Origin: Candidatus Zhuqueibacterota bacterium
GTDB lineage: Bacteria > Zhuqueibacterota > Zhuqueibacteria > Oceanimicrobiales > Oceanimicrobiaceae
Assembly: GCA_029262005.1 (NCBI GenBank)
Contig: JAJDAG010000017.1
Span: forward strand, 13,473-77,472
Direction: 5' to 3'
Length of the DNA: 64,000 nt
In this document: positions 42,230-61,258 of the stretch, in pieces
Position numbering within the stretch: the stretch's first letter is position 1
How the letters are laid out: each line of letters begins with the position of its first letter
Notes under the pieces: generated by a model
The model's input: the letters and a program-made list of their open reading frames with translations, nothing else
Told to the model about the DNA's origin: nothing
Database searches by the model: none
Made by a program: the position numbers and the translations under genes

Positions 42230-42307
42230 TGACTATCCCACAGATGAATATTCTTCTAAGAAATGTTTAAAATCGGCCTTTTGGCAATCGCGAGGCATTT
42301 TAGTATA

Positions 42308-43627: not shown

Positions 43628-43648
43628 GTTTGTCCATCGTTTTGGAAT

Positions 43649-44557: not shown

Positions 44558-44581
44558 TCTCCCACGTGTACAAAATAAAAA

Positions 44582-45556: not shown

Positions 45557-45570
45557 AAAATCCGCGTTCT

Positions 45571-47019
45571 CTAATAGCCAGGATTTTGTGTCAGGCCTAA
45601 ATCTACCTCTCTTTGAGGGATAGGAAACAATAAATTGTTGGCGCCAGGCTGCGGAAATCCTTCAGCCGTCATGTGAGACTGCATCACTTCCAGAGCTCTT
45701 CCAAACCGCAGCAGGTCATACCAGCGGTGATTTTCAAAGGCCAGTTCTATTCTCCTTTCGTGGAGTAATTTGTCTTCGAACGATCCAGGCGTACTGGCGT
45801 CAATATCAGCCAGGCCGGCACGACTCCTCAGTTGATTTATCAAACCGTAGGCCTCTCCACCCTCACCAATAGCCTCCGCGAGCATAAGCAATACATCAGC
45901 ATAACGGAATACGGTGAAATTGTTATTGGCGTCATTATCGCCCGATGGCACACTCAAGTATTTCTTGATATACCTGGCATTTTGTGTAGCGCCGACCGCA
46001 TCCACGTAAGTCGTATCCATCGAGACAAAAAAGCGCGTATCATCCGGTTCATAAGCGTCAAGCATACTAAGGGTAGGCCTGTTGCGACCGCCGCTATCAA
46101 ATCCACCCACCAAATTCGAACTCGGCGAGAAGGATTGGCTATATCCGCTGCCCTCGCCAAATCCGCCGGACTTGAACTGGACCTCAAAGATAGATTCCGC
46201 ATTCAATTCATTTGCCGAGCCCCACAGGTCTGCATAACCGGATACCAATTGAAATGCACCGCTGTTAACAACTTCACGCAGAACAGATGCAGCAGAAGCC
46301 GAGTTCCCGGCAGTCAGGTACACCTTGGCTAACAAAGTTAGAGCTGCTCCCTTTGTCGCTTTGCCGCCAACTGTTGACGGGTGCACCTCGGGAAGTTTAC
46401 TTGCCGCATCAGTTAAATCAGTAATCAATTGCTCCAAAACGGTTGCAGCGGGAACCTGCGAGATCTGCTCAGAGACTGAAACAGTTTCGGTGATCGGCAT
46501 AGGAATATTTCCGAACAGCAGGGCTAAGTTATAATAAAGTAAAGATCTCAGAAAAAGCGCCTCCCCGGTAAAGCGATCTTTGTTTGGATTGATTCCAAAA
46601 TCTACATCGCCGATACGGGAGAGAACCGTGTTGGCCCTGGCAATCCCCGAGTAGGAGCCGACCCAGGCACCAAGGACAATTTCGTTTAAGGCGTCCTCTG
46701 TAAACTGGTTGATGACGGCTACCTGGAAAGAGAGGCCTGTCACATCGGCTCCCTGATCCGTGTTGTCCGATCTCATTTCCGTAAGCATCCAATAGCCACC
46801 TGTACCACCTGTGGCAACTGCACCGGTGGTTCCGTAGGTACCCCCGCCTTGTAAAGCATCGTAGATGCCGTTTACCGCAATCTCAATATCTGTTGCTGTA
46901 TTATAAAAATTTTCAACATTTCTTTCCGAATGCGGCGCCAATGACGTGAAATCATTGGAACACGACAATATAAATAATAATGAGAGCAGTAGGGATGCTG
47001 GAATTATTTTCTTCCTCAT
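45571..47019 (-). CDS. susD: SusD/RagB-family outer-membrane nutrient-binding lipoprotein
   Basis: Lipoprotein signal LLLSLLFILSCSNDF. SusD-like TPR helices (AVNGIYDALQ, RSLLYYNLALLFGNIPM). C-terminal region ends LTQNPGY. Confidence 0.85.
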   Translation of the reverse strand: MRKKIIPASLLLSLLFILSCSNDFTSLAPHSERNVENFYNTATDIEIAVNGIYDALQGGGTYGTTGAVATGGTGGYWMLTEMRSDNTDQGADVTGLSFQVAVINQFTEDALNEIVLGAWVGSYSGIARANTVLSRIGDVDFGINPNKDRFTGEALFLRSLLYYNLALLFGNIPMPITETVSVSEQISQVPAATVLEQLITDLTDAASKLPEVHPSTVGGKATKGAALTLLAKVYLTAGNSASAASVLREVVNSGAFQLVSGYADLWGSANELNAESIFEVQFKSGGFGEGSGYSQSFSPSSNLVGGFDSGGRNRPTLSMLDAYEPDDTRFFVSMDTTYVDAVGATQNARYIKKYLSVPSGDNDANNNFTVFRYADVLLMLAEAIGEGGEAYGLINQLRSRAGLADIDASTPGSFEDKLLHERRIELAFENHRWYDLLRFGRALEVMQSHMTAEGFPQPGANNLLFPIPQREVDLGLTQNPGY

Positions 47020-47051
47020 TTTGAGTTCCTCTCTGTTTTTTATGTTAGTTT

Positions 47052-50000
47052 TTAGAAGGTAATGTTAGTCCCTACTATCCAGGTTTTTGTCAGTGGGTAG
47101 GCTCCATAATCTTCTCCCTGAACGAGCATGTTTTGTGACTGAAGACTGACTTCTGGGTTAAACCCGATGTAGTCCGTAAGCGTAAAAAGATTTTTGCCGG
47201 TTATGTAGATTCTCACACCCTGAGCAACTCTGCTGGTCAAGGAGCGCGGAAGTCTGTACCCAATAGTAAGGTTTCTCAAGCGGAAATATGAACCATCCTC
47301 AACCTGATATGAAGACGGTCTATTGTTATTACCCTGCAACCCGGTTTGGCGATCGGCCCTGGGAGTTTGACCATTTCCGGGCTCTTCTGCAGAACGCCAG
47401 CGCTCATTAAGAATACCATAACTGTTAAAATTGGCCTCACCGTTTTTCATATGCCGGGCGGTAAGATTCATTATTTCCCGACCCTCAACGCCTTGGAAGA
47501 AGATACTCAGATCAAAGTTTTTGTAATGAAACCTGTTGGTAATCCCATAAATAAAATCGGGATGATAACTACCGGTAATCGTTCTGTCGTCGGTATTTAT
47601 GATGCCATCACCGTTGATGTCCTTGAATCTAAAATCACCGGGTTTGGGATCGGGTGCATTGGCATCCTGAGGTGCATTAGCAATATCCGCCTCTGACTGA
47701 TAGATACCGTCAACGACCCAGCCATAATAGCTGCCAAGCTCTTCCCCAACCTGAGTGATGTGCCTGATGCCGGCACCGCCAGCAGCCAGGATAGGTTCAT
47801 CTCCCGGGCCTAATTCAAGAACCTTGTTGTCATTAGCTGCGAAATTAAACTCGGTGGACCATTGGAATGCTCCAACCATGTTCCTTGAAGTAAGTGAGAG
47901 TTCGAAGCCTTTATTTTGCACCCTGCCAATGTTCTGCAAAGCGTTCGTAAAACCGGTTGCCGACTGCACCCCTACTTGAAGAAGCAAATCCTCAGTTTTA
48001 CTATTGTACCAATCGAAAGTACCATAAATTCTGTCTTCCAACAGCGCATAGTCGATTCCAAGATCAACTTGTTTTGTTGTCTCCCAGCCCAGTTTTTCAT
48101 TACTGATTGTTGCCGGGAATACAGCGCTAACAGGCTGATCATCGTCAATGTAGAGCTCTTGACCCAATAAGCCGATGGCCCCATAATTAGGAATCAGGAA
48201 GTTACCGGTCTCACCATAACTCGCTCTCAATTTAAATTCACTCAGGAAGCTAAGCTTCTCCTTCACAAACTCTTCTTGGGCCATTCGCCAGGCCACTGAA
48301 AATGAAGGGAATATGCCCGTTTGATTTCCCGGCCCAAATCTGGATGACTTATCTGAACGAATCGTAGCGGTCAATAGATATTTGTATTTGTAATTATAGT
48401 TAATTCGTGCCAACAAGGACACTAGAGACCATTCCTCTTTAACGCTGTTTCCATCCGTAACCAAGCCACCGGAAAGGGTCTGTACCTGATCATCCGGGAA
48501 GTTGCGAGCTATCACGGTATTTGTTTGACTCACGTCTTTCTGTGCAGTATAACCTAAAAGGGCTGTCAAATTATGAGCGTCCCTCACAACTTTTTTATAA
48601 TTTAGTGTATTTTCCCAAACCCAGTTAGTTCTCGTTGCCGAACTACTTTGGGCATAAGGGTCGCCTGTTGTTGCTGTTCTGTACAACAGACTATTGCCCC
48701 TGAAGAAAGAACCTTGAAAATTGTCTAGATCGACGCCAAACATCGATCTAAAAGTAAGATCTTTGACGAGAGAAATATCTGTGTAAATATTACCGAATGT
48801 TCTATGGTTGGCCAGACTTTCGTCAATACCGTCAATGATAGCTAATGGATTGCTGGCGGATGTGGTACCGCCGTCCAGAAAGGACTGAGCGCCATCGGCC
48901 GCACGCTGGTTGGGCCTGCCAAGATCATCAAAAGGCTTTACGACCGGAGAATGTACCATTGCCGAATAGACGATACCGGGAGGTCTGCCAAAATACGGCG
49001 CATTTGCAGGGACTCTATCGTTTTCAGTAAAAGCAGCATTAATGTTAGCGCCAAATGTTATGGATTCATTTAAATCGCCAACAAAACGCGCGCTTAAGGT
49101 GTATCTCTTAAATTGAGAATTTTCTATAATTCCATCTTGCTTTAGGTAGCCGCCGGAGATGTAATATGAACTATTTTGACCGCCACCCGTGACTGACACA
49201 TTAGAATTCGTAATTGGCGTAGAACTGAAGATAAGATCAAGCCAATCCGTATCCGTTCCATCCCAATTGACATATTGATCAGGCATCGTAAAATTGCCGG
49301 ATAAACCAGCACGCCCGTCATTGTTAGCCGGATTATAATTGGGGTTGTAATTAGCGCTACTCGGATTCAGAGGGTCCAAGTTGTCAATGTAATTGTTATT
49401 CCTGGCATCTTGTGTATAGGCTATTAATTCCTCAGCATTCATCATATCAGGCTGGTTTGCAACCGACTGAGTTCCCGTGTAGGCATCAAACCTGATGGTT
49501 GGCTTGCCGCCGCGCTTTCCTTTCTTGGTTGTAATCAGAACCACACCGTTGGATCCCCTTGAACCGTAAATAGCGGCGGCTGAGGCATCTTTCAAGATCT
49601 CAATGGATTCAATATCGGCTGGGTTTAACGCGGCCAGCGGATTTGTTGCCGGTGGCTTAAAGGCGGCACGACGCCGAAATAAAGTGCCCTGAAGATTCAA
49701 ATTTTTGGAAATCGGCAACCCATCGAGAACATACAATGGATCGTTTCCAGCGCTGATTGAGCCTGTTCCTCTTATTCGAATATTAGGTTCACCACCCGGT
49801 TCACCGGTATTTTCCTGAACATCAACACCCGATAGTTGGCCCTGGATAGCCTGCTCAAAACTAAGAACCGGGATATCTCTCAATGTCGCTGCCGAGATTC
49901 GAGAAACCGAACCCGTAACCTCTCTCCGTTGCTGAGTACCATACCCAACGACCGTCACCTCTTCCCCGCGAAGGACCTCGGAGGCCATGAACATATCGAT

Positions 50001-50630
50001 CTCACCACGACCACCGACGACAATTTCCTGACTCTTATACCCGACATATGTAAACACCAGGATGTCTTGCGGCGAGATATTTTCCAACTGATACTTGCCA
50101 TCGCTATCAGTAGTGGTCCCCGTCTGGGTGCCCTTCACCACAATATTTAGTCCTGGCAGCGGGGACCTGTCATCTTCGTCAACAACTCGCCCGGTAACCC
50201 GATGTGTCTGGACAATTACGCTAGTCGGTTCAGGGCCGGCAGCCGGCTCTATCTGCTGAAGAACCACAGTCCTGGTACCAACTTTTTTGTAGCCAATCGG
50301 ATGTTCGCCCAGAGTCGCTTCCAGGGCTTCTTGAAATTTTTTAGAAGAAGATGCCAACAGTGGCGCGGTTCGCCCGTTAACAACTTCATCATCATAAACG
50401 ATATAGACACCATAGGTTTCTTCGAGCTTGGACAGCGCCGCTCCCAAAGTCACGGATTGCCAGGCTGCCTGGTTTAAAAGCAGCCGATCAACAGTCTTGG
50501 ACGCCAGTTGTTGGGCCAGACTGTTCGTTGCAAGCATTCCAAGCACAACCACAAGGCATACAGTAATAAAGCGTCGCATAATTCTTCCTCCATTAGTAAT
50601 TACGGCACAGCATGTTAAGTAAAAAGTCAC
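47052..50630 (-). CDS. susC: SusC-like TonB-dependent transducer with an N-terminal STN signalling domain and a carboxypeptidase-regulatory-like domain. The true start is probably MRRFITV near 50579.
   Basis: STN-like N-terminal extension (SVTLGAALSKLEETYGVYIVYDDEVV). CarbopepD_reg_2 block (VTGRVVDEDDRSPLPGLNIVVKGTQTGTTTDSDGKYQL). Plug, 22-strand barrel, C-terminal TonB-receptor ending NITF. Confidence 0.9.
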   Translation of the reverse strand: MTFYLTCCAVITNGGRIMRRFITVCLVVVLGMLATNSLAQQLASKTVDRLLLNQAAWQSVTLGAALSKLEETYGVYIVYDDEVVNGRTAPLLASSSKKFQEALEATLGEHPIGYKKVGTRTVVLQQIEPAAGPEPTSVIVQTHRVTGRVVDEDDRSPLPGLNIVVKGTQTGTTTDSDGKYQLENISPQDILVFTYVGYKSQEIVVGGRGEIDMFMASEVLRGEEVTVVGYGTQQRREVTGSVSRISAATLRDIPVLSFEQAIQGQLSGVDVQENTGEPGGEPNIRIRGTGSISAGNDPLYVLDGLPISKNLNLQGTLFRRRAAFKPPATNPLAALNPADIESIEILKDASAAAIYGSRGSNGVVLITTKKGKRGGKPTIRFDAYTGTQSVANQPDMMNAEELIAYTQDARNNNYIDNLDPLNPSSANYNPNYNPANNDGRAGLSGNFTMPDQYVNWDGTDTDWLDLIFSSTPITNSNVSVTGGGQNSSYYISGGYLKQDGIIENSQFKRYTLSARFVGDLNESITFGANINAAFTENDRVPANAPYFGRPPGIVYSAMVHSPVVKPFDDLGRPNQRAADGAQSFLDGGTTSASNPLAIIDGIDESLANHRTFGNIYTDISLVKDLTFRSMFGVDLDNFQGSFFRGNSLLYRTATTGDPYAQSSSATRTNWVWENTLNYKKVVRDAHNLTALLGYTAQKDVSQTNTVIARNFPDDQVQTLSGGLVTDGNSVKEEWSLVSLLARINYNYKYKYLLTATIRSDKSSRFGPGNQTGIFPSFSVAWRMAQEEFVKEKLSFLSEFKLRASYGETGNFLIPNYGAIGLLGQELYIDDDQPVSAVFPATISNEKLGWETTKQVDLGIDYALLEDRIYGTFDWYNSKTEDLLLQVGVQSATGFTNALQNIGRVQNKGFELSLTSRNMVGAFQWSTEFNFAANDNKVLELGPGDEPILAAGGAGIRHITQVGEELGSYYGWVVDGIYQSEADIANAPQDANAPDPKPGDFRFKDINGDGIINTDDRTITGSYHPDFIYGITNRFHYKNFDLSIFFQGVEGREIMNLTARHMKNGEANFNSYGILNERWRSAEEPGNGQTPRADRQTGLQGNNNRPSSYQVEDGSYFRLRNLTIGYRLPRSLTSRVAQGVRIYITGKNLFTLTDYIGFNPEVSLQSQNMLVQGEDYGAYPLTKTWIVGTNITF

Positions 50631-50654
50631 TCTCTCCTTTAATTACAATTCAGG

Positions 50655-51758
50655 TTAAAATAAACTCTCGCCCTCCCCAAAAGTAATGAGAGCACCTTCT
50701 CGTCGAACCGGAATCTTCATGGCGTTTGCAAGTGCATCCGTAACAACGATCAAATTTTGATTTTCGATAGAGCCGGATAACGTTCTTTGTAGCAGCCGTT
50801 TGTCCGAAACTTTTACCCTAACGCCATACGTTTCTTCCAGGCGCGTCAAAATTTCTTTAAACGGAGTTTGTTCAAAAATCATTGAGTTCTTCCACCAGGT
50901 GACAAACGGATTGATATTCACCGAAACAGGCTTCAGCATTTGTTTTCCTTTTTTAAATTGCAGCAGGTCCCCTGGCGTTAGCTGAATTTTTGTGAGGGAA
51001 TTCAAATCCACGAGCCTGTCGTCACCCGAAGCAACTTCAACACCGCCTTCTTCAACAACTACACGCGTGCCGCTGCCGCGTTCATAAACTGCAAAGCGCG
51101 TACCGTTAACCGTAATCGTGCCATCCGCTGTATGCACGATGAACTTATCCCGCGGTACATCCAAACTTTTGGAGACTGCAAAATAAGCTTCACCCTTCAA
51201 TTCAAATCGATGCGCTGAAGATTGTGGCCACACTGCCGGATATCGTAAAGTTGAATTGGCATTTAATACAATTTTAGTTCCTTCAGGTAGCCTGATCGTA
51301 GCCCGTTGACCATATTCCGTTGAAATGAGTTGATAGCTTTCTCGCTCTGCAAGCTTTGCTTCTTTTTGCGAAGTATCAAACCAAATAATGACAGCTATCA
51401 GGAAAGTCGCAGCAAATGCTACTGCAGCAAATCGTCTCCAGCTATCATATCTCCGACGCTGAGGGGAAAGCCTGGTCTGAGTAGAAAAAGTTTGAACAGC
51501 TTCCTCTGTGTTTTTGTCGAGTTTCAATCTTTCCTTCAATTTGTTCCACTGTGAATCTATTGCTGGGCCTTCTGCGACGTTGAATTTCATAGATTCCATA
51601 AATTGCATCGCTTTCAAATAAAGCCTTTTATTCTCCGTGGAGCAATTTCGCCATGTATCCCATTTCTTCTGCTCCGATGGAGTCGCCCTCCCCAAAAGCC
51701 AGTCATGAAATGATTCGTCCAAGAGTAAAGAGATAAGGTCTTCCATACCTTGCATCAT
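50655..51758 (-). CDS. FecR-family anti-sigma factor (trans-envelope signalling partner of the SusC-like transducer)
   Basis: Single TM segment (AAVAFAATFLIAVIIW). FecR domain (VNGTRFAVYERGSGTRVVVEEGGVEV). C-terminal DUF4974-like region. Confidence 0.8.
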   Translation of the reverse strand: MMQGMEDLISLLLDESFHDWLLGRATPSEQKKWDTWRNCSTENKRLYLKAMQFMESMKFNVAEGPAIDSQWNKLKERLKLDKNTEEAVQTFSTQTRLSPQRRRYDSWRRFAAVAFAATFLIAVIIWFDTSQKEAKLAERESYQLISTEYGQRATIRLPEGTKIVLNANSTLRYPAVWPQSSAHRFELKGEAYFAVSKSLDVPRDKFIVHTADGTITVNGTRFAVYERGSGTRVVVEEGGVEVASGDDRLVDLNSLTKIQLTPGDLLQFKKGKQMLKPVSVNINPFVTWWKNSMIFEQTPFKEILTRLEETYGVRVKVSDKRLLQRTLSGSIENQNLIVVTDALANAMKIPVRREGALITFGEGESLF

Positions 51759-51903
51759 AGATTGTTTTCTTAAGTGTTTGTTAAATGATAGAATTGCAGT
51801 GCTTTATACTAAGAGAGAGATTAAATAAGAAAGTGTAATGGTCTTTTTTTAAAAAAAAGAAACATATGTAATGAGAATGAGAAGGTAGGATAGCTTGATG
51901 AGA

Positions 51904-52515
51904 TTATGTCGGGGGCGCCAGCAGCGTCTTAAGACGGTGGTATGCTTCCGACAAATAATTGCGTACGACTTGGGGTCTTACGCTCATAATCTCGGCGATT
52001 TCTTTATAGGTTAGATTGTCATTCATCTTAAGATAAAGCGCCTCCCGCATCCGCGCCGGAATCTTTTTAAATGCAGACCGAAGCCTTTTCTGTTCAAATG
52101 TTTCCTGCTCTGCAAATATCATCAAATCTTCCAGTGTAAACACGTTGTCAACTTGTTCCACCGTAAACTCTTGATGAGCTGTTTCTTGCCGCCGTTGCTT
52201 GCTAAGGGTATTCAACAAACGGCGGCGCAATGAAACAAGCAGATAGGCTTTAATTGAATCCACCGATGAAAGATTTCTTCGTTTTTCCCAAATATATAAA
52301 AACAGTTCCTGGATAGCGTCTTTTACTAACTCTTCTTCTCTGGCCAGTTTTACGCCATAGTCGAATAGGTAAGAATAATAGGCTCGAAACAAAGACTCCA
52401 AAGCCTGAGCATCGCCTTTTTTTAACCGCGCCCAAACTTGACGCTCCTTTTGAATTCGCTCAAGCTTATCGGACGACTCTAAAGAATTTGAAATAGATAC
52501 GTTATTATTTTTCAA
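51904..52515 (-). CDS. ECF sigma-70 factor controlling the PUL
   Basis: Region 2 (YYSYLFDYGVKLAREEELVKDAIQELFLYIW) and region 4 HTH (LTYKEIAEIMSVRPQVVRNYLSEAYHRLK). Confidence 0.85.
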   Translation of the reverse strand: MKNNNVSISNSLESSDKLERIQKERQVWARLKKGDAQALESLFRAYYSYLFDYGVKLAREEELVKDAIQELFLYIWEKRRNLSSVDSIKAYLLVSLRRRLLNTLSKQRRQETAHQEFTVEQVDNVFTLEDLMIFAEQETFEQKRLRSAFKKIPARMREALYLKMNDNLTYKEIAEIMSVRPQVVRNYLSEAYHRLKTLLAPPT

Positions 52516-52559
52516 TTAGAAGAAGCATTTTGTTAGCGCACGATGCAAACTCAATTAAC

Positions 52560-52712
52560 CTAATTAATTCTTAAAAAGTGACAGACGGAGGCAAACTCCA
52601 CAGCGTGACCCACTTCAGTAAAAAGGTCGGCCGTGCCTCTGAGGCTTACATCGCAGTCATCGGGGTGTGCACCAATCATAATGACTCGAATTTGTCCATC
52701 AACCGAACCGTT
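52560..52712 (-). pseudogene. Truncated N-terminal fragment of a PIG-L/LmbE deacetylase (gene remnant, about 45 codons)
   Basis: The minus strand translates to NINGSVDGQIRVIMIGAHPDDCDVSLRGTADLFTEVGHAVEFASVCHFLRIN then stop. Residues 1-44 are homologous to GGKLRIIAIGAHPDDCDAKFGGTAALFAEMGHAVKFVSV in the intact gene at 43649..44557. Homology then stops abruptly with a stop after 5 unrelated codons, and there is an in-frame stop immediately upstream. Confidence 0.5.
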
Positions 52713-53024
52713 TATATTTTAAGCGAGTGCTAAAGTAATGTTGCATAGCGTTATTATAGTAGACGTTTCATTTGGGTTCTCCCGCGTTTAGGCTGTTGCT
52801 AGCGCGGCTTAGGATGTTGCAAAAAAGACTTATACAGAATAAAAGAAAGCTGGAAGAAAAAGTCAAATTCTATTTCGGCTAAGAAATGAAGCCTTCAGGG
52901 CGGTATCTATGCAGTGAGGATTTTTGAGTACCAGTCTTGCACCATTTTTCAGACAGTGTTAACTGTTGTAATATCTATTGTGAACCGCCGGAAAGCACTC
53001 GTCAGGGTAGAGCCGTAAATTCTG

Positions 53025-53597
53025 TTATCGGTCACAAATTTCGCTAAAATTCCTCAAAATTTTCTTGCCTTCATCAGTCAAAATTGATTCCGGATGAAAC
53101 TGCAGCCCAAACAAATCCATGCTTGTGTGCTGCAGCGCCATGATTGTTGCATCATCGGTTTCAGCAGTGACAACAAAGTCCGCCGGCAAACTTACCCGGT
53201 CTACGGTGAGTGAGTGGTAGCGGGTCGCTTTAAACGGTGACGGAACATGCTTAAATAATCTGCTGCCGTCATGTGAAATCATTGAAGTTTTGCCGTGCAT
53301 TAGCCTGGGTGCCGGAACAACCAAACCGGCGAAGGCATAAGCCAGGGCTTGATGACCGAGACAAACGCCCAGAATTGGTTGCCTACCGGCGGTCTCTTTA
53401 ATTAGCTGCACAGAGATCCCGGCATCTTCCGGACGCCCCGGTCCCGGCGACACAACAATTCCGGCCGGCGCCAGTTTTTTTACCTGTCCAACTTCAATTT
53501 CATCGTTGCGGCATACGTACAATTCAGCGCCAAGCTCCCCGAGATATTGCACCAGGTTGTAAGTAAACGAGTCATAATTATCGATAACTAAAATCAT
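53025..53597 (-). CDS. trpG: Anthranilate synthase component II (glutamine amidotransferase)
   Basis: MILVIDNYDSFTYNLVQYLGELG with the GATase triad context GVCLGHQ and HPES. 20-nt overlap with the upstream trpE remnant. Confidence 0.85.
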   Translation of the reverse strand: MILVIDNYDSFTYNLVQYLGELGAELYVCRNDEIEVGQVKKLAPAGIVVSPGPGRPEDAGISVQLIKETAGRQPILGVCLGHQALAYAFAGLVVPAPRLMHGKTSMISHDGSRLFKHVPSPFKATRYHSLTVDRVSLPADFVVTAETDDATIMALQHTSMDLFGLQFHPESILTDEGKKILRNFSEICDR

Positions 53598-54150
53598 TGA
53601 AGCCCCTTTTCGGCAAAATCAATCGCCGCGCCCGCAACGCAGCAGATTTATGTAATGTTTCGTCAAATTCTCGTCCGGGAACAGAGTCGGCCACAATGCC
53701 GGCCCCTGCTTGAGAATAAGCGCAATCCCCCTTGGTGACAATCGTGCGAATGGCAATACAAGTGTCCAGGTTTCCAGAAAAATCGAGATAGCCAAGCGCA
53801 CCACCGGCAAACCTTGGCAAACCATCGAACCTTGCGACTTTGTAGCGGGAAAAGCGCGCGCTTAAGTGTTCAAAAATATTGCCATGCATTTGACTGTGCC
53901 GACCGTTTTCCCTAACATCAAGAACATTTCGAGTGCAACGAATAGATGCAAACGGGCTGCACCCGAGAAAGGAGAAGCGTGCTGTTTTTTCACCACCCTC
54001 CACATTCTCAAACAAAAACACCTCGGAAGAAAGTGTTTGCAAGCATTGACATACAGAAACCGGGGTTAGCATATCAGCAAGGCAGGTGGTATAAACAGGG
54101 ATTACGTTTGCCTGTTTGGCAGCGTCAGTGAATTCATCAAAACTGGTCAT
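53578..54150 (-). pseudogene. trpE: Anthranilate synthase component I (TrpE) carrying an in-frame internal deletion of the catalytic core. This 190-aa mini-TrpE is probably non-functional.
   Basis: Residues 1-127 match the TrpE N-terminal regulatory region up to the LPRFAGGALGY motif (FDEF..NVIPVY..LADMLTPVS...FLFENVEGGEKTARFSFLG). The next residues, LDFSGNLDTCIAIRTIVTKGDCAYSQAGAGIVADSVPGREFDETLHKSAALRA, match the last ~60 aa of TrpE. They align with the C-terminal GGAVGYFTAHGDLDTCIVIR block, so about 320 aa between the two GGAxGY motifs are missing. Confidence 0.6.
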
Positions 54151-54160
54151 GGTCGGCCCT

Positions 54161-54196
54161 AAAAAAACCCACTACATTTATTTATGCAGTGGGTTT
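54161..54196 (-). terminator. Rho-independent terminator / attenuator hairpin 10 nt upstream of the trpE start
   Basis: Minus-strand RNA AAACCCACUGC-AUAAAUAAAU-GUAGUGGGUUUUUUU. 8-bp stem with one G.U pair, 10-nt loop, 7 U. Confidence 0.55.
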
Positions 54197-54231
54197 GAGT
54201 TGGTGTAGAAGATATTTTATTTGATAATCAT

Positions 54232-54315
54232 CTATTCGAAACTGAACACTTCTTTCCCATTATTGACTGGCCACCAAGACCCAAAAAAACGAGCTGTGGG
54301 AAAATAAGCGTTCAT
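54232..54315 (-). CDS. trpL: Candidate trp leader peptide (27 aa) with tandem Trp codons
   Basis: Minus-strand ORF verified codon by codon: MNAYFPTARFFGSWWPVNNGKEVFSFE. The UGG-UGG pair is at 54276..54271. The stop lies 32 nt before the terminator hairpin. Confidence 0.5.
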   Translation of the reverse strand: MNAYFPTARFFGSWWPVNNGKEVFSFE

Positions 54316-54520
54316 TCTTGCCTAGCTATTTGATTAGTTAATGAGTTGCAAATATAAAGTAAAAATATTAAACGTCAAGTGTTTTGTGTCGGAGGGAAAA
54401 TTCTGCTCTATGTCGGTAACCGTTCAGTCCTGCAACTGCTTTCACCGTCTCAATTGCGGCGTAACTGTATATGAGTTACTCGGAAGCTGTTGGCTTATTG
54501 ACAAAAAAGTCAATATGAAA

Positions 54521-56638
54521 CTATTTTGTCAGCACCACCTTTTTAACTGCGGTGAATTCCTTTCCTGCCTGCAACCTGACAAAATAACTGCCGCTGGCGT
54601 AACCCGTTGCATCCCAAACGAGCCTGTGCCACCCTTCAGGCTGTTTGTTGTTGAGGAGAACCGCAACTCTTTGTCCGCGCACATTATAGATTTCCAGCAG
54701 CACATGTGTCGCCTTTTGCAGTGAATACTCAATTTGCGTGGTCGGGTTAAATGGATTCGGGTAATTCTGCCTCAGAGCAAAATCCTTGATCAACGAATTA
54801 TCGCTTGCAGTCTCTTCAACTGCGCTCACCACATTGCCGGTGAACATTTGCACACCAGGACCGGCATCGCCATAGCCGGCAAAAATTTTTGTGGCATCAT
54901 CTGAAATAATAACACTCATGGTACTGATTAAGTAAGGATGGTAAGGATTCGGCATTTCACCGGGTTGAGAATGTTCCCAGAGCAAATTTCCGTTGACATC
55001 CCAAAGCATGGTTTTAAATGGCGCATCGGTAGCGGCGCCGCCCACAGCAATGTATTTTCCATCAGGCGTCATATCAATGGCATTATGGCCACCATTTTCA
55101 TCAACGGCGCGCTTCCAAAGCAGATTGCCGTCACCATCGTACAGTCGCACAACACCGTTGTGACTGAGCGCGGCAATGCGTGAAGCATCGCTGCTCATAT
55201 CTGCATCGGTAAGGATTGGAATAAAATGACGCCATTGCCAGTTGCCCTGCCAGTCGTAGCAAGTTAACTGATTGCCTTTATCTGCTGATATAATTTTACT
55301 ATTGTCCGAAGTTATGCCAATTAGGTAAGGGGCAATGCCACCTATATTTCGTTCCCACACGAAATTTCCATTTACATCTAGAAGCACCAGTGAACTTCCG
55401 CCGCCGATGGCGACATGCGAATTGTCCTGACTAAATTTGATGCCGCGCCAGTGTACATCGTAAAAGGGGAATTGCCAAAGGATGTTGCCTGTGGCAGCAT
55501 CTACCATTCTAAATGGCGCAACTTCATAGGCTACAAAGTCCCCACTGTTTGATATGTTTATTTCACGAATCTGATCATGTGGATTAAGACGATGCTCCCA
55601 AACTTCCTCGCCGTTTGCCCCAATTGCAACGATTTGTCCGCCATCTGTACCCACTACCACGAGGGAACCGTCCTTCCTAATGTCCATGCCCCAAGCCTGC
55701 TCATTAACCGAAAAATTCCAAATCCTTGTTCCAGTTGTGGTAAAAAGGCGAACATGGGTCGAGTCCAGAGGCGTGTCCCACTCATCCGGGTGTTTGCCGA
55801 GGCAAACCGCTAAATGATTCCAGTCTTGAGAGGGAATTACATGCCAAACACCCGGCCGCTGTAGTGGCTCATACCAGGCTGGGATAAAGTTTGCCTGTGC
55901 TGCCAGTGGTTTTAAGTTTGCTTCAACCGTAAGTCCCGTCTGTCCAGCTTCAGGTGCAAGGGGATCGAGGATGGCGCTCTCATATCCTGGGCAATGCACC
56001 TCAAGCCTGTAACCAAGCCAGCCTTTTTCATGTGCATCTGAAATGGCTTTTAGTGAATCAAACTGCATCACCGAATATCGAAAATCCCCACTTGGTTCTA
56101 TCTGCATATTTTCTTTATGTGCCCCGACCCAGACAACACTGCGGGCCCGGTCCAGGCGTAGCCCGGTAGATGCATCACGAACAGTTACACGGATTTCAAA
56201 AGAATTTGCAGGACCTGCGGGTGCATAACTACCAAAATGTTGCAATTGCACAGTTTTTACAATTTTGTTTAAGGTGTCTTTGTCAGAGTAAAATTCGCAA
56301 TCAAGGGTATGTTGTGGGTACGTGCCCTTGTTCAACCCGCTGAGAATAACCGCTTTTGCTTCCTCACCGGGTTCGAGATGAATATAAGTGGGGCCATGCA
56401 AGTCAAACCACCCAGTCTGCGGTGTTAAGTTTACATTCACAAGCACATGCTCCGTATCGGTGCCGGTATTCGTCAAAGTAGCTGTGATTGCCGTTGACCG
56501 GTCGAACGGTTCAACTTGAGAAAAAGTGCTTGAATCAAAAACAACTGTGAAATTTTGCGCCACAGCGTTGGTTGCTGTGTACATAGAAAGCGATAGGATG
56601 ACGATAAGAAAACCATATTTGTGTCGCATAGGTAGCAT
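54521..56638 (-). CDS. Secreted PQQ-like/WD40-like beta-propeller protein with a T9SS C-terminal sorting domain
   Basis: Signal peptide MRHKYGFLIVILSLSMYTATNAVA. Repeated beta-propeller blades (GEEVWEHRL, GNILWQFPF, GNFVWERNIGG, GNWQWRHF, GNLLWKRAV, GNLLWEH). C-terminal ALRQNYPNPFNPTTQIEYSL...SGSYFVRLQAG T9SS CTD signature. Confidence 0.7.
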   Translation of the reverse strand: MLPMRHKYGFLIVILSLSMYTATNAVAQNFTVVFDSSTFSQVEPFDRSTAITATLTNTGTDTEHVLVNVNLTPQTGWFDLHGPTYIHLEPGEEAKAVILSGLNKGTYPQHTLDCEFYSDKDTLNKIVKTVQLQHFGSYAPAGPANSFEIRVTVRDASTGLRLDRARSVVWVGAHKENMQIEPSGDFRYSVMQFDSLKAISDAHEKGWLGYRLEVHCPGYESAILDPLAPEAGQTGLTVEANLKPLAAQANFIPAWYEPLQRPGVWHVIPSQDWNHLAVCLGKHPDEWDTPLDSTHVRLFTTTGTRIWNFSVNEQAWGMDIRKDGSLVVVGTDGGQIVAIGANGEEVWEHRLNPHDQIREINISNSGDFVAYEVAPFRMVDAATGNILWQFPFYDVHWRGIKFSQDNSHVAIGGGSSLVLLDVNGNFVWERNIGGIAPYLIGITSDNSKIISADKGNQLTCYDWQGNWQWRHFIPILTDADMSSDASRIAALSHNGVVRLYDGDGNLLWKRAVDENGGHNAIDMTPDGKYIAVGGAATDAPFKTMLWDVNGNLLWEHSQPGEMPNPYHPYLISTMSVIISDDATKIFAGYGDAGPGVQMFTGNVVSAVEETASDNSLIKDFALRQNYPNPFNPTTQIEYSLQKATHVLLEIYNVRGQRVAVLLNNKQPEGWHRLVWDATGYASGSYFVRLQAGKEFTAVKKVVLTK

Positions 56639-56786
56639 CCGAATATGACAAAAGAATCTGTTTTCATATCAATTATCGTCAGATATGGCAATATATGAAT
56701 ACGTCAACTGCAAAGCAGTTGTAATTCAAGAAATAAAGGCCTATTATCCAAGAGCAAATAAATCGCAGCTTTAGCTTGCGGGCTTA

Positions 56787-58304
56787 ATGGCTGTTAAAAT
56801 TAATATTTTCGAAATAAGAATAGAGAATACATTGAAAGAATCCACCAACTCCCCCGATGAACAGCAAAAAAAACATTTACCTGAAATTTCTTTAGAAGGC
56901 TTGCCAGAGAGTTTACGCAAAGCCGTGGCACGCACAAACTGGAATGCACTCATGCCTGTTCAAGCTCAGGCAATCCCCTATCTTCTCGCTTCCCGCGATG
57001 TGATGATACAGGCACGAACTGGTAGCGGTAAAACAGGGGCTTTCCTCTTGCCACTGCTTGAGCGCCTCGACCCGGATAAACCGCACTGTCAGGCACTCAT
57101 TCTTGTTCCCACGCGCGAGCTTGCACAACAAGTGTGGACTGAAGCCCAAACACTCTGCGGCGAAAAAGGCCTCCGATCTGTTGCAGTATATGGAGGGGTT
57201 GGCTACAAGCCGCAAGTTGACGCCCTCAAGGGGGGCGCTCATATTGTCATTGGAACGCCTGGCCGTGTGCTCGATCATTTGCTCAAGCGCACTTTTGCGC
57301 TCAAAAACATCAGATTGCTGATCTTCGACGAGGCAGATCGTATGTTATCGATGGGTTTTTACCCGGACATGAGAAAAATGCAAACACACTTACCGAAACG
57401 TGCGATCAACACCTGCATGTTTTCAGCCACGTTTCCAAGCTATGTTATGCGGACGGCTCAAGAGTTTCTTCATGACGAAGAATTTCTTTCTCTTAGTGGG
57501 GAAGAGGTTCATGTCTCCGACACCGAGCATATCGCTTATACTGTTCCCGGCATGGACCGGGAGCGCAGCCTTGTGCGTTTAATTGAAATGGAAAACCCCG
57601 CATCTGCCATAATATTCTGTAATATGAAAGACACGGTACATTACGTGGCAGTTGTTCTGCAACGATTCGGCTATGACGCAGATGAGCTGACTTCTAATCT
57701 TTCGCAGAAGGCTCGTGAGCATGTTTTGCAACGTGTCCGCAAAGGAACACTGCGTTTTTTGGTTGCAACGGATGTGGCAGCACGTGGCCTCGACATTCCA
57801 GATCTATCTCATGTTTTTCAGTATGAACCGCCTGAGGATCCTGAAAGTTACATCCACAGGGCCGGAAGAACAGGCAGGGCAGGCGCCAGTGGGGTTGCCA
57901 TTTCACTTGCTACAAATATAGAAATGTCTGCTCTTGAGCGCATTGCAAAGCGTTACAGTATCGATTTGCAGGAACGACCGCTGCCCACAGTTGAAGATGT
58001 TGAGGCTATTGTTACCGAACGTTTGACAATCTTACTTGAGGCGCGCCTGCGTGAGCGTGATAAACTTCAGACCGAACGCAGCCTGCGATTTATGCCGCTC
58101 GCACGCACGTTGATCGAAAATGCCGATGAGTCCGCCATCATTGCGATGCTGCTGGATGATTACTATCAGGAAGTTCTGCATGCGCCTCTCATTCAACCTG
58201 ATGCCCCGCCACCAATTCAAAAGGAATATATTCAAGAACGCAGCAAGGACAATCAAAAAAGACCAGGCCATCGCCGCGGAAAACCCAGGCCAAGGAATCG
58301 ATGA
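56787..58304 (+). CDS. DEAD-box ATP-dependent RNA helicase with a basic C-terminal tail
   Basis: Q-motif, Walker A ARTGSGKTGAF, PTRELA, DEAD box LIFDEADRM, SAT, HRAGRTGRAG, basic C-terminal extension. It is the only convincing plus-strand gene. Confidence 0.9.
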   Translation: MAVKINIFEIRIENTLKESTNSPDEQQKKHLPEISLEGLPESLRKAVARTNWNALMPVQAQAIPYLLASRDVMIQARTGSGKTGAFLLPLLERLDPDKPHCQALILVPTRELAQQVWTEAQTLCGEKGLRSVAVYGGVGYKPQVDALKGGAHIVIGTPGRVLDHLLKRTFALKNIRLLIFDEADRMLSMGFYPDMRKMQTHLPKRAINTCMFSATFPSYVMRTAQEFLHDEEFLSLSGEEVHVSDTEHIAYTVPGMDRERSLVRLIEMENPASAIIFCNMKDTVHYVAVVLQRFGYDADELTSNLSQKAREHVLQRVRKGTLRFLVATDVAARGLDIPDLSHVFQYEPPEDPESYIHRAGRTGRAGASGVAISLATNIEMSALERIAKRYSIDLQERPLPTVEDVEAIVTERLTILLEARLRERDKLQTERSLRFMPLARTLIENADESAIIAMLLDDYYQEVLHAPLIQPDAPPPIQKEYIQERSKDNQKRPGHRRGKPRPRNR

Positions 58305-58531: not shown

Positions 58532-60358
58532 CTAGTGCCGCTTAAACCGCCTGTCCAATTCATCCAGTGAAACATGAATGAGCACAGGTCGTCCATGCGG
58601 GCAGAAATAAGGTTCTCTCGTTGAAAAAAGCTGGTCGATTAAGCCATTCATTTCATCCAGACTCAGCGGATCACCAGCGCGTATGGCTGAATGGCAGGCA
58701 AAAGATGCTGCCACATTTTCGCGTATTTCGGTACGATCGTTTTTCCCGCGCTTGTACTCATCCAATATTTGCAGTAAAATTCGTTCGTCGTCTTTTATCT
58801 TGACATCCGTTGGAACGCCTTCCACAACGACTGTGTTTTTACCAAAGGCCTTAACCACAAAACCAACATTTTCGAGGAAAGGAATCATTTCCAGCAGGAT
58901 GGAATAATCTTGCTGTGAAAGTTCAATGATTTGCGGAAATAACAATTGTTGCGAAGAAGGTTTTCGCGTTTCAAAACTGTCAAGCGCCCGCTCATAGAGA
59001 ATACGTTCATGTGCGACGTGCTGGTCGATAACAATAAGGCCATTTTTGATTTGCGAGATGATGTATTTTTTGTGGACTTGCCAAACATTGAGCCGCTCAA
59101 ATGATGCATCAACTGTCCGATTCGCAGCAGTTTGTACGGACGCTGGCATTGAAGCTGAACCATCGCCCTCCACGCCAGTAGATGTACTTTCGGCCTTTAG
59201 AAAACGGCCATCCGGCCAGCCAGGCAAAGGTGCCCGGCCAGGCTCAAAAGAGAGTTGACTAGCAGCAGCCTCACGCCCTGAGTTTATCGAGCTGGGGCTC
59301 ATAGACTCAGCCTTGTGAAAACTTTCTCCTGCAGCAGTCCATGGTGAAATTTCCGGAATGACGTGGTGTGACGTGAGCGCCCTTTTGACAGCACCGCGTA
59401 CTGAACTGAAAATCAGTGCATCATTAGCAAATTTTATTTCCATTTTGGTAGGATGCACGTTCACATCAACCTGACTTGTGTCCATTTCGATATTTACGAT
59501 ATAAATTGGATAAGAACCGCGTGGCAGGATTTCGCCAAACGCTGCAACTACTGCATAATTCAAGTTCTTGCTTGTGAAAAATCTGCGATTAAAATACATG
59601 TATTGGTCGCCGCGTGACCGACGCACAACATCCTGATTGCCCACAAACCCTGTTATCTTGACAGGGCCATCGTTTTCAATTTCGATCATATTTTTGCGTA
59701 TGCGTGCGCCCAGCACAGAACCAATTCTTGACTCGTGCGATTCGCTCGTCAGCTCATACACTACCTGATCCTCGTTCACAAGCGTAAATGCAATTTCGGG
59801 GTAAGCCAGACAGAAACGACTCATAACAGTGAGAATTTGACGATATTCCGCATTGACACTCTTTAAAAATTTTCGGCGTGCCGGTGTGTTAAAAAACAAA
59901 TTTTTCACCGCAATGGATGTTCCGGGCCGACCGGCACTGGCAGTCACGCTATTCATGACTCCGCCCTCAATACGCAAACTGTGGCCTGAAGACTCGCCTT
60001 GAAGAACCGATCGTGTGTCCACTTGTGCTACGGAAGCAATACTGGCAAGCGCTTCACCTCTAAATCCCAGTGTACTGACATTAGCAAGGTCATCAAATAC
60101 GGCTATTTTACTCGTTGCATGCCGCTGAAATGCTAAAACCAAATCCGGCTCGGTCATGCCGCCACCGTTATCAACAACCTGCAACAATGCTTTACCGCCC
60201 TCGCGCATAATCACCGTAATATCATCCGCGCCTGAATCAATGGAATTTTCGACCAATTCCTTAACGACCGAAGCCGGCCTGTCAACGACCTCCCCTGCGG
60301 CAATTTTGTTCGTCAAATTTTCAGGTAGAATTCGGATTTTGTTTAGGCTGGCTGTCAT
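58532..60358 (-). CDS. mutL: DNA mismatch repair protein MutL
   Basis: GHKL ATPase N-terminus (IRILPENLTNKIAAGEVVDRPASVVKELVENSIDSGA, DNGGGM, GFRGEALASI). C-terminal dimerisation/endonuclease domain with CPHGRP. Confidence 0.9.
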   Translation of the reverse strand: MTASLNKIRILPENLTNKIAAGEVVDRPASVVKELVENSIDSGADDITVIMREGGKALLQVVDNGGGMTEPDLVLAFQRHATSKIAVFDDLANVSTLGFRGEALASIASVAQVDTRSVLQGESSGHSLRIEGGVMNSVTASAGRPGTSIAVKNLFFNTPARRKFLKSVNAEYRQILTVMSRFCLAYPEIAFTLVNEDQVVYELTSESHESRIGSVLGARIRKNMIEIENDGPVKITGFVGNQDVVRRSRGDQYMYFNRRFFTSKNLNYAVVAAFGEILPRGSYPIYIVNIEMDTSQVDVNVHPTKMEIKFANDALIFSSVRGAVKRALTSHHVIPEISPWTAAGESFHKAESMSPSSINSGREAAASQLSFEPGRAPLPGWPDGRFLKAESTSTGVEGDGSASMPASVQTAANRTVDASFERLNVWQVHKKYIISQIKNGLIVIDQHVAHERILYERALDSFETRKPSSQQLLFPQIIELSQQDYSILLEMIPFLENVGFVVKAFGKNTVVVEGVPTDVKIKDDERILLQILDEYKRGKNDRTEIRENVAASFACHSAIRAGDPLSLDEMNGLIDQLFSTREPYFCPHGRPVLIHVSLDELDRRFKRH

Positions 60359-60565
60359 TCGTCAATCTGCTCTCATCTTTCTGTTTTGCATATTTTGTTG
60401 AATTCGGAGTGGTACCCTGCAAGCATAAATGTAAACATAATAAATCTTAACATGAGTTCCAATTTATTAATTTGCAGGAAAGAAAGTGGTGAGACTTTGT
60501 GGCGTAAAACCGGCAAAATTTTATGGAGAAAGTTCTCTAAAAACCGCTATCGAACTATGGGAAGG

Positions 60566-61258
60566 TTAAAGCAATCCGGAATCTGCAAAGCTGAAATAGC
60601 CGGCGTGGCCAACAATAATGTGGTCAAGAACATGAATTCCCACAGCTTCGCAGGCCGTTTTTAACCGGCGCGTAGCCCGCTTGTCCTCTTCGCTTGGACT
60701 TGGATTTCCAGAAGGATGGTTGTGCACAAAAACAACGGATGCGGCAGATTGATTTAAAGCCTCTTTGATGATTTCCCGCGGACTGACGATGCTCTCGGTC
60801 AAACTGCCCTCAAAAAGTGTTTTGTTCAAAATAATGGTATTTCTGCTGGTGAGAAGGATGACCTTAAACACCTCTTTCCCGAGATCCCGTAAGTGAGGCT
60901 TTACAATGCGAAAAACATCTTCACTGCTTCCAATCTTATCACTGATTTTTGTTTTTTCGAGAAAAAGCCGTTTTCCAAGCTCAATTGCAGCCTTAATTTG
61001 TGCTGCTTTAGCCGGGCCGATACCGTTGATTTCACACAATTCGGCGACAGACCGGGTATCCAGTCCTCTGAACCCACCAAAATCATGGATGACCTTTCTG
61101 GCCAAATCAATAGCAGTTGTTTCATGGTTGCCTACACGCAACAATATAGCCAATATCTCAGCATCAGAAAGACTTTCCGGACCTGAGTTGATGAGCCGTT
61201 CACGCGGTCGCTCATTCTCAGGCCAATCCGGTATTTTGGGTGTATATCGAGACATCAA
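60566..61258 (-). CDS. radC: RadC-like JAB/MPN-domain protein (UPF0758)
   Basis: N-terminal HhH region (LSDAEILAILLRVG) and JAMM motif HNHPSGNPSPSEEDKRATRRL. Confidence 0.8.
   Translation of the reverse strand: MMSRYTPKIPDWPENERPRERLINSGPESLSDAEILAILLRVGNHETTAIDLARKVIHDFGGFRGLDTRSVAELCEINGIGPAKAAQIKAAIELGKRLFLEKTKISDKIGSSEDVFRIVKPHLRDLGKEVFKVILLTSRNTIILNKTLFEGSLTESIVSPREIIKEALNQSAASVVFVHNHPSGNPSPSEEDKRATRRLKTACEAVGIHVLDHIIVGHAGYFSFADSGLL

Follow-up and report, generated by a model that had tools for sequence, protein, structure and literature searches.

The 190-codon trpE' frame is very probably a non-functional relic of trpE, produced by ordinary pseudogenisation in an aromatic amino-acid supraoperon that is being dismantled. 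It lies in the orthologous position, after mutL and a leader and before trpG, as indicated by the synteny of the 64-kb window (the whole stretch of DNA analysed) with loci L002-L005. Four properties of a pseudogene relic were found together: truncation, a further disabling lesion, relaxed constraint, and the loss of the pathway partners. The coordinates of the features are listed in Table 1.

Table 1. Features of the trpE' locus in the 64-kb window.
Feature	Position	Strand	Details
mutL and radC	58532..61258	(-)	Synteny anchors; orthology with the relatives' radC-mutL-trpE locus
Promoter-like site TTGACG-16-TATATT	54351..54378	(-)	Relatives have TTGACA-type sites at the equal position
Leader peptide ORF MNAYFPTARFFGSWWPVNNGKEVFSFE*	54232..54315	(-)	27 aa; tandem Trp codons at 54271..54276
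Degenerate antiterminator segment AATAATGGGAAAG	54252..54264	(-)	4 bp of pairing left
Intrinsic terminator of the leader	54161..54196	(-)	10-bp stem, -15.3 kcal/mol, T7 tail
trpE' relic ORF (very probable)	53578..54150	(-)	190 aa; TrpE residues ~1-117 plus the last ~70
Deletion junction	53788..53805	(-)	GGT GGT GCG CTT GGC TAT = GGALGY; 915 nt missing
Frameshift tract TTGCGGGCGCGGCGATTGAT	53618..53637	(-)	+2 or -1 nt in a GCG/CGG run
trpG/pabA-type glutamine amidotransferase	53025..53597	(-)	190 aa; intact to the native C-terminus
Non-coding scar	52516..53024		509 bp; directly after the trpG stop
PIG-L (LmbE-like) N-terminal pseudogene fragment	52578..52748	(-)	Truncated, in-frame stop
SusC/SusD block replacing trpD..tyrA	36268..52515	(-)	17 kb
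DAHP synthase relic	35424..35486	(-)	Last 21 aa
Prephenate dehydrogenase (tyrA) relic, ACT-domain end	35187..35418	(-)	Frameshift and stops
Intact distal supraoperon	30448..35168	(-)	aroA (EPSPS), aroE, aroC, aroK, aroQ-GAF

Structure of the trpE relic

The full-length TrpE proteins of the nearest relatives (488-489 aa) were used as the reference for the alignment, in which the two terminal parts of trpE' were joined in frame. In trpE', the sequence broke off at GLPRF(T/A)G and resumed at GALGYLDF. The break fell inside a GGAxGY motif, and the junction copy GGALGY combined the N-terminal motif FTGGAVGY with the C-terminal motif Y(A/S)GALGY as a hybrid. Given in-register recombination of both [GAS]GA[LV]GY motifs, exactly 305 codons were absent, instead of the ~320 residues estimated in the first-pass annotation. 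Anth_synt_I_N (PF04715) matched trpE' over positions 1-96 of 140 (58 bits), and the Chorismate_bind domain (PF00425) was incomplete, with only positions 205-257 of 257 present (56 bits). The NCBIfam model trpE_most (TIGR00564) scored 111.2 bits against an equivalog cut-off of 517.7 bits. Both Pfam and the alignment showed that the middle of the protein was absent, including the chorismate-binding core. The first-pass annotation had described a fusion of the two ends of TrpE at a GGAxGY motif with loss of the catalytic core, and this description was correct.

The deletion may have arisen by replication slippage or illegitimate recombination across a direct repeat of ~6-8 nt supplied by the two motifs, which shared just 6-7 contiguous nt in the relatives. 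The product stayed in frame because both motifs share the same codon phase, and not through selection.

Lesions at the 3' end and in the leader

Downstream of the frameshift tract, the ancestral TrpE C-terminus, AAIDFAEKGLQ*, was still legible in the other frame (frame 2). It resembled the C-termini of the relatives (...AAIDFAERGLK* or ...AAIEFAERGLQ*) and closed on the TGA of an ATGA overlap with trpG (53594..53597). The frameshift rewrote the last 11 residues of trpE' and left the final 17 codons of the ORF off the ancestral frame, and both the native C-terminus and the ATGA stop-start coupling of TrpE were lacking. The present 20-nt overlap between trpE' and trpG exists because the frameshift at ~53618..53637 altered this ancestral ATGA overlap. 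It was therefore a mark of damage, and not a preserved feature as had been proposed.

The terminator of the leader ended 10 nt upstream of the trpE' start codon. The leader peptide carried WW in the window and W-x-W-x-W or W-x-W in the relatives. In the relatives, the antiterminator (G/A)(C/T)AGTGGG paired at eight of eight positions with the left arm of the terminator, and the fold of segments 2:3 reached -23 to -26 kcal/mol with a covarying 8-bp duplex, compared with -8.8 kcal/mol in the window. The antiterminator duplex itself was 4 bp (-5.8 kcal/mol) in the window vs. 8 bp (-13 to -17 kcal/mol) in the relatives. The Trp-codon ORF and the intrinsic terminator were present, but the mutually exclusive antiterminator pairing was gone, and the attenuator was thus only partly preserved. 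Because the 2:3 pairing was destroyed, the leader of the window is predicted to terminate constitutively. An Rfam scan of the whole window returned no family at the gathering score, and no T-box or known Trp leader. The first-pass annotation stated that the frame, the overlap and the attenuator had all been preserved. This was true of the frame, whose preservation was automatic, and of the leader peptide with its Trp codons and the terminator; it did not apply to the overlap or to the antiterminator pairing.

Relaxed constraint and the question of a functional short form

As measured by identity and by changes at invariant sites, trpE' is under relaxed constraint. The N-part of trpE' shared 46-49% identity with the relatives, which shared 64-66% among themselves. 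Sites invariant in the relatives had changed at 19 of 64 positions in this part, vs. 8 of 116 in TrpG (Fisher p=1e-4); the count for MutL was 29 of 334. When seven sequences of the clade were used, 9 of 48 otherwise invariant sites were changed in the window, vs. 1-2 of 40 in the intact relatives. The Pfam score of the N-domain was 58 bits, vs. 73-82 bits for "virtual minis" trimmed identically from the relatives. One of the changes, S49N, gave LFEN where the relatives have LLES or LFES, and the lost Ser aligned with the LLES Ser of mycobacterial TrpE; the LLES feedback motif was thus absent. The C-terminal 52 residues showed 73-87% identity with 3 of 37 invariant sites changed, which was no excess divergence. 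This suggested that the deletion was recent or that the decay was uneven, and the contrast between the N- and C-parts at conserved sites was not significant (p=0.22).

The open frame of 190 codons was considered as a sign of selection and rejected by simulation: the probability that trpE' contained no stop by chance was about 0.2-0.5, and 0.2-0.3 after 8-10% random substitution.

The first-pass annotation had also offered a repurposed regulatory stub paired with an intact amidotransferase. Such a functional short form would be kept for tryptophan sensing or for stabilising TrpG. The frame was open and had a start codon, and it was preceded by a promoter-like site and a Trp-codon leader; its C-part was well conserved, and TrpG was under constraint. 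The Trp feedback site of the Salmonella and Serratia TrpE consists of three segments, two of which were retained in trpE'. One was the strand with LLES, and the other, ...DTC..., aligned near Cys465 of 1i1q. However, the serine of the first was replaced, the NPSPY segment was deleted, and the C-terminus was frameshifted. At conserved sites, changes in the N-part were in 3- to 4-fold excess, and an open frame was expected by chance at the frequency given above. Searches of 5.8 billion and 1.84 billion proteins gave no orthologous short form; the closest sequences with the same junction were chimeras with 30-40% identity to the N-part of trpE'. A scan of a collection of genome contigs with trpE' brought up only distant C-termini of TrpE. 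A family with orthologues elsewhere and co-evolving N- and C-parts was thus not seen, and the same holds for the conserved short protein in a relative that would have pointed to function. P0004 (186 aa, 123 cluster members) was examined as a conserved functional mini-TrpE and rejected. This parallel case from Dorea had a different junction (APKI), was located between rplA and rplJ beside an 81-aa GATase stub, and belonged to a cluster that also held fragments of 63-70 aa. Taken together, a functional short form is most improbable. It is exceedingly unlikely that the mini-TrpE still docks TrpG or senses tryptophan via the LLES strand and ...DTC..., coupling a pABA-directed amidotransferase to tryptophan status; if this were true, an organism no longer able to make tryptophan would have its pABA supply tied to that amino acid.

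The junction in the assembly and in public databases

A dozen TrpE proteins of 165-215 aa in public databases had the same N/C junction and appeared to be assembler chimeras. They were singletons on contigs of 0.6-2.4 kb, one with a k-mer coverage of 0.86. The kinship of their two parts was discordant: the identities over the N- and C-parts were 47 and 98%, respectively, for P0261 and P0405, but 79 and 50% for P0261 and P0404. This indicated that the GGAxGY motif was able to cause misjoins. A conserved family or a real deletion hot spot was rejected as an explanation of these proteins on account of their singleton status, short contigs and mosaic kinship.

These look-alikes lend some weight to the view that trpE' itself is an artefact, in which a full-length trpE exists and its GGAxGY motifs were collapsed or chimerically joined. 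Against this, the motif repeat of 6-7 nt is far below any assembler k, trpE' sits on a 96-kb contig, and an independent Logan contig (k=31, SRR15505514) was 100% identical over 51953..55314, including the junction. The two sides of the junction had the same GC content (46.1%) and correlated tetranucleotide profiles (r=0.86-0.95, vs. r=0.3-0.65 to the relatives); a chimera between genomes at this point was ruled out by this composition. The nearby independent lesions (the frameshift, the loss of the antiterminator and the replacement of trpD-tyrA) concurred without any use of the junction. An assembly collapse, which had been suggested earlier, is therefore extremely improbable.

The deletion could also belong to one strain variant, with cells carrying an intact trpE and operon coexisting in the sample. 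Metagenome assemblies report one path of the graph, the ends of the Logan contig (51953 and 55314) could be branch points, and the intact C-part of trpE' suggested a recent deletion. However, the haplotype of the window already combined the 17-kb replacement with several independent lesions, so more than one step separated it from an intact operon. The databases, including the other indexed contigs of the same run, contained nothing closer than 69% identity for TrpG and ~54% for the N-part of TrpE. Polymorphism in the population is very unlikely as an account of the locus.

Retention of trpG

The amidotransferase was still intact, as had been noted from the start: it was of full length and kept its catalytic motifs. 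TrpG scored 232.6 bits with TIGR00566 (cut-off 121.05), matched PF00117 over positions 1-186 of 190, and aligned end to end with the TrpG of the relatives. The triad motifs GVCLGHQ and FHPES (HPES), corresponding to GxCxGxQ and HPE, were invariant with the relatives, and its level of conservation equalled that of MutL and RadC. The trpG and pabA genes are indistinguishable by sequence (PMC2395257). The gene was probably retained because it also serves as PabA, the glutamine amidotransferase for the synthesis of p-aminobenzoate and folate from chorismate, and the retained aro genes could still make this chorismate. The pabB gene was not found within the 64-kb window. Expression of trpG might depend on transcription that reads through the terminator, which nothing now opposes, or on an internal promoter. 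The loss of the antiterminator would lower the expression of trpG, which sits awkwardly with this gene being needed.

Replacement of trpD..tyrA and history of the locus

The gene order in the nearest relatives was radC-mutL-[leader]-trpE-G-D-C-F-B-A-CM-DAHPS-tyrA-aroA-aroE-aroC. In the window, trpD through most of tyrA had given way to a sugar-utilisation block, with gene relics at each of its edges. This block encoded an ECF sigma factor, FecR, SusC, SusD, an MFS transporter and a Na/sulfate-type symporter, together with two PIG-L deacetylases, a ROK kinase, a PcRGLX-like protein and a NagB-like protein. None of trpD, trpC, trpF, trpB and trpA was found anywhere in the 64 kb by tblastn, and the expectation that they did not follow trpG was confirmed. 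The scar of ~500 bp with an unrelated gene fragment was confirmed as well. Its PIG-L fragment matched the PIG-L gene at 43649..44557 with 51% identity over aa 14-69 of the latter (73% at the nucleotide level). A search of the scar for remnants of trpD, trpA and CM gave just noise-level matches, and no trp remnant was detected there. Around the 17-kb block, a search for mobile-element genes and for repeats at the flanks, direct or inverted, gave nothing convincing except the partial PIG-L duplicate.

The orthologous supraoperon, the replacement of trpD-tyrA, and the remaining relics of DAHPS and tyrA supported the earlier proposal of recent decay toward tryptophan auxotrophy, the auxotrophy itself being inferred. 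The lineage is very probably dismantling its aromatic operon, and tryptophan synthesis and the CM, DAHPS and TyrA functions have probably been lost at this locus.

Significance and comparison with known systems

In the annotation of this MAG, no tryptophan synthesis, chorismate mutase, DAHP synthase or TyrA should be assigned at this locus, and the 190-aa ORF should carry a pseudogene label in place of the name "anthranilate synthase component I". The GGAVGY motif pair of TrpE is a site of chimeric "mini-TrpE" proteins made by metagenome assemblers, which are now in public protein sets. The trp leader-peptide attenuator of this clade, with its covarying antiterminator, is outside the coverage of Rfam. 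The biology here is mostly housekeeping; the locus provides a clean example of a nutrient-scavenging block that cuts a biosynthetic supraoperon, with a shared-use trpG/pabA surviving.

By synteny, trpE' was orthologous to TrpE, and its N-terminal stretch of 117 aa and its C-terminal stretch of ~55 aa shared 46-87% identity with the TrpEs of the clade. Unlike functional TrpE, it lacked the entire catalytic core, within a missing segment of 305 residues, its C-terminus was frameshifted, and the LLES Ser was replaced by Asn. The trpL of E. coli is the paradigm of leader-peptide transcription attenuation in trp operons. The window resembled such leaders in its short Trp-codon ORF, its 1:2 hairpin and a terminator just 5' of trpE; in contrast to the relatives, whose 2:3 antiterminator covaried with the terminator, its 2:3 pairing was destroyed, and there was no match in Rfam.

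The TrpG of B. subtilis is described as amphibolic, acting as TrpG/PabA (Slock et al., 1990, as cited in PMC3174152). By analogy, one amidotransferase of the TIGR00566 type could serve aminodeoxychorismate synthase here, which would explain the survival of trpG without trpE. Unlike the case of B. subtilis, the PabA role is a probable one here, the window was without pabB, and the gene was still located behind a trp-type leader.

The supraoperon of B. subtilis is arranged as aroFBH-trpEDCFBA-hisC-tyrA-aroE. As in this array, the trp genes were embedded among common-pathway and Tyr-branch genes, and both ends of the array were kept in the window. In contrast to the trp-aro supraoperons, the middle (trpD..tyrA) was swapped for a 17-kb block of the polysaccharide-utilisation type. 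Reductive loss of trp genes is represented in host- and community-dependent bacteria by the trpEG pseudogenes of Buchnera and the partial trp operons of Chlamydia. The window was similar to these losses, and to the relic in Dorea, in that deletions and frameshifts had inactivated the pathway step by step and gene fragments had stayed behind. However, it belonged to an FCB-like bacterium of the free-living type that has T9SS and SusC/SusD genes, and here trpG was spared and the common shikimate genes were kept.

The truncated trpE and its internal deletion

The mini-TrpE gene trpE', in which the N-terminal part of TrpE is joined to its C-terminal part, is very likely a real but ordinary pseudogene within a supraoperon (the relatives' combined trp and aromatic-pathway array) under dismantling. 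Decay, one of three readings in the first-pass annotation, was supported by the deletion, a frameshift, a lost antiterminator, change in the N-terminal part and the replacement of trpD-tyrA.

Features of the locus and of related short forms (window positions unless a contig is named)
Feature	Position	Strand	Remarks
trpE'	53578..54150	-	190-codon ORF
Frameshift tract	53618..53637	-	TTGCGGGCGCGGCGATTGAT; +2 or -1 shift accounts for altered trpE' C-terminus
trpG	53025..53597	-	190-codon ORF overlapping trpE'
Attenuator, window	54161..54378	-	leader-peptide type
Attenuator, relatives	L002:8360-8540, L003:8330-8537, L004:4725-4910		leader-peptide type
mutL-to-leader interval	54521..58304		DEAD-box helicase (+ strand); 705-aa PQQ-like beta-propeller protein with T9SS sorting domain
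mutL	58532..60358		upstream of trpE'
radC	60566..61258		upstream of trpE'
PIG-L deacetylase N-terminal copy	52578..52748		truncated, contains stop
Replacement block	36268..52515	-	lower end ~36268; polysaccharide-utilisation-type
DAHP synthase relic	35424..35486		last 21 residues, 62-67% identical, native C-terminus
Prephenate dehydrogenase relic	35187..35418		ACT-domain end; frameshift and stops
aroA	33882..35168		~18 kb downstream of trpG; then aroE, aroC, aroK, aroQ-GAF fusion
Type II dehydroquinase	30448..31326	-	C-terminal GAF domain fused; end of retained aro run
Same-junction minis	P0261, P0292, P0332, P0404-P0410, P0414, P0418; L079-L081		joined at GGAVGY
Dorea relic	L075:8001-8806 (also L076-L078)		186-aa internally deleted trpE, uncultured Dorea sp.

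Pfam matched the trpE' product only at its two ends, to Anth_synt_I_N (positions 1-96/140) and Chorismate_bind (positions 205-257/257), which confirmed the earlier view of a TrpE head joined to a TrpE tail; NCBIfam trpE_most scored 111 bits against a cut-off of 518. In the alignment, the product tracked the relatives' TrpE up to GLPRF(T/A)GG and picked up again at ALGYLDFSGNLDTCIAIRT. The relatives' TrpE carried two motif copies, FTGGAVGY (residue 115/116) and Y(A/S)GALGY (residue 420/421), and recombination of the two in register would cut exactly 305 codons with the frame intact. Only 6-7 contiguous nucleotides were identical between the two copies in the relatives, and the deletion appears to be microhomology-mediated. 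Since the two copies have the same codon phase, such a deletion necessarily leaves the frame intact, and the open junction is therefore uninformative on selection for trpE'.

The last 17 codons of trpE' (RRLILPKRGFNDFSYR) did not match the relatives. A different frame of this DNA read AAIDFAEKGLQ, matching their ...AAIDFAERGLK* and ...AAIEFAERGLQ*, and stopped at the TGA within the ATGA overlapping the trpG start codon. The 20-nt overlap of trpE' and trpG, previously regarded as preserved, is thus a product of the frameshift lesion.

Assembly artefact or conserved short form

That the short trpE' reflects an assembly collapse, as had been proposed, was not supported. A Logan contig (run SRR15505514) from a separate k=31 assembly, which may derive from the same reads as the window assembly, was 100% identical to 51953..55314 and covered the scar, trpG, frameshift, deletion junction and leader. 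A de Bruijn graph is not collapsible by a 6-7-nt repeat. The GC content was 46.1% on each side of the junction, and tetranucleotide profiles across it correlated at r=0.86-0.95, compared with r=0.3-0.65 to the relatives.

About a dozen TrpEs, 165-215 aa long and sharing this junction, turned up in public protein sets when 1.84 billion representatives were searched exhaustively with HMMER and 5.8 billion proteins with a profile. All were singletons on metagenome contigs of low coverage and 0.6-2.4 kb, with a k-mer coverage of 0.86 for one. Identities in the N- and C-parts were 47% and 98% for P0261/P0405, 79% and 50% for P0261/P0404, and 33% and 74% for P0404/P0410; trpE' shared 30-40% and 40-62% with these minis. 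The short singleton contigs, the conflicting N/C relationships and the distance to trpE' ruled them out as a family, and they are probably inter-genome assembler chimeras at the conserved GGAVGY motif. A short form conserved in relatives had been named as evidence against a pseudogene; none orthologous occurred among the proteins searched. The abundant Dorea mini-TrpE P0004 has a different junction (APKI). Its gene and an adjoining 81-aa GATase stub both lay between rplA and rplJ, its cluster also included 63-70-aa fragments present on hundreds of contigs, and it looks like a decaying relic as well.

Constraint on trpE' and its neighbors

The N-part of trpE' was 46-49% identical to three relatives, which shared 64-66% among themselves. 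Among sites invariant in these relatives, 19/64 (30%) were changed, compared with 8/116 (6.9%) in TrpG (Fisher p=1e-4) and 29/334 (8.7%) in MutL. Where six other N-termini of the clade were invariant, trpE' was changed at 9/48 sites and intact sequences at 1-2/40. The Pfam N-domain scored 58 bits, versus 73-82 bits for relatives cut to an equal 'virtual mini', and S49N altered the LLES feedback motif at its serine. For TrpG, MutL and RadC, the window was as close to the relatives as these were to each other.

The C-terminal 52 residues showed no excess change (73-87% identity; 3/37 invariant sites changed, one of which, E159G, was also present in a full-length TrpE). The deletion may be recent, with selection on the regulatory N-domain already relaxed for longer; alternatively, the two parts may differ by chance (p=0.22 on conserved sites). 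Simulated random substitution left the ORF stop-free with a probability of 0.46 at 5%, 0.32 at 8% and 0.22 at 10% divergence, which ruled out the open frame as a sign of function. The suggestion that trpE' is a regulatory stub was not supported, because the 3' end is frameshifted, an open frame could well persist by chance, the minis are not a family and the N-part is the faster-changing one.

Leader and attenuator

The leader of trpE' was genuine, with a promoter-like TTGACG-16-TATATT site, a 27-aa ORF in which two Trp codons stand in tandem, and a terminator (10-bp stem, T7 tail) ending 10 nt ahead of the start codon. Homologous leaders in the relatives encoded YWFWYWYY-type peptides and had an almost identical terminator stem. 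The attenuator had been described as preserved; this held for the promoter-like site, Trp-codon peptide and terminator but not for the antiterminator pairing. In the relatives, a (G/A)(C/T)AGTGGG segment paired 8/8 with the terminator left arm and covaried with it (GCAGTGGG, GTAGTGGG, ATAGTGGG), with a duplex of -13 to -17 kcal/mol and a 2:3 fold of -23 to -26 kcal/mol. Its window counterpart, AATGGG, formed 4 bp at most (-5.8 kcal/mol); the window 2:3 fold, at -8.8 kcal/mol, left the terminator out. Since this pairing was lost, folding of the four sequences predicted that the window leader would terminate constitutively.

In the clade, the trp attenuator combined a leader peptide of W-x-W-x-W or W-x-W type with a 1:2 hairpin and an antiterminator of 8 bp covarying with the terminator arm; the window copy had no Rfam match.

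Partial loss of the supraoperon and retention of trpG

Four nearest-relative contigs, representing three distinct lineages (two were identical in sequence), shared one gene order: radC-mutL-trpE (488-489 aa)-trpG-trpD-trpC-trpF-trpB-trpA, followed by chorismate mutase, DAHP synthase, prephenate dehydrogenase, EPSP synthase, shikimate dehydrogenase and chorismate synthase. The window locus is the orthologue of this supraoperon, because both ends of the array were retained on the same strand. The reported lack of trpD/C/F/B/A after trpG extended to the whole 64 kb, in which chorismate mutase was likewise not found.

The native trpG stop was immediately followed by a 509-bp non-coding stretch containing the PIG-L copy, which was 51% (protein) and 73% (nucleotide) identical to the PIG-L gene at 43649..44557. 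The replacement block encoded an ECF sigma factor, FecR, SusC, SusD, two PIG-L deacetylases, an MFS transporter, a ROK kinase, a PcRGLX-like protein, a NagB-like protein and a symporter, a gene set suggestive of amino-sugar polymer uptake. Two gene relics lay in the 1.1-kb gap ahead of aroA. As the block and edge relics stand where the relatives have these genes, trpD through most of tyrA is replaced, with decaying remnants at both edges.

In tetranucleotide profile, the block resembled the remainder of the window slightly less closely (r=0.86-0.90 vs 0.94-0.95). The GC content of the window was 45-46%, versus 52-57% in syntenic regions of the nearest relatives (L002-L004), and the lineage appears to have shifted towards AT.

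The trpG product was a complete class-I glutamine amidotransferase (TIGR00566, 233 bits vs cut-off 121), full length with a native C-terminus and both GVCLGHQ and HPES, and as conserved as MutL and RadC. The lineage is isolated, because its closest TrpG among 5.8 billion sequences reached only 68-69% identity. The named best matches were Calditrichota- and KSB1-type MAGs; the window also encodes T9SS sorting domains and SusC/SusD, which fit an FCB-type bacterium. The common shikimate genes were intact, and no pabB was found within the 64-kb window. Sequence does not separate trpG from pabA (PMC2395257), and B. subtilis is cited as having a single 'amphibolic' protein for both pathways (Slock et al. 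1990, cited in PMC3174152). Most economically, p-aminobenzoate and folate synthesis would be what keeps trpG in place.

Upstream, the mutL of the relatives directly adjoins the trp leader, unlike that of the window, where two genes lie in between.
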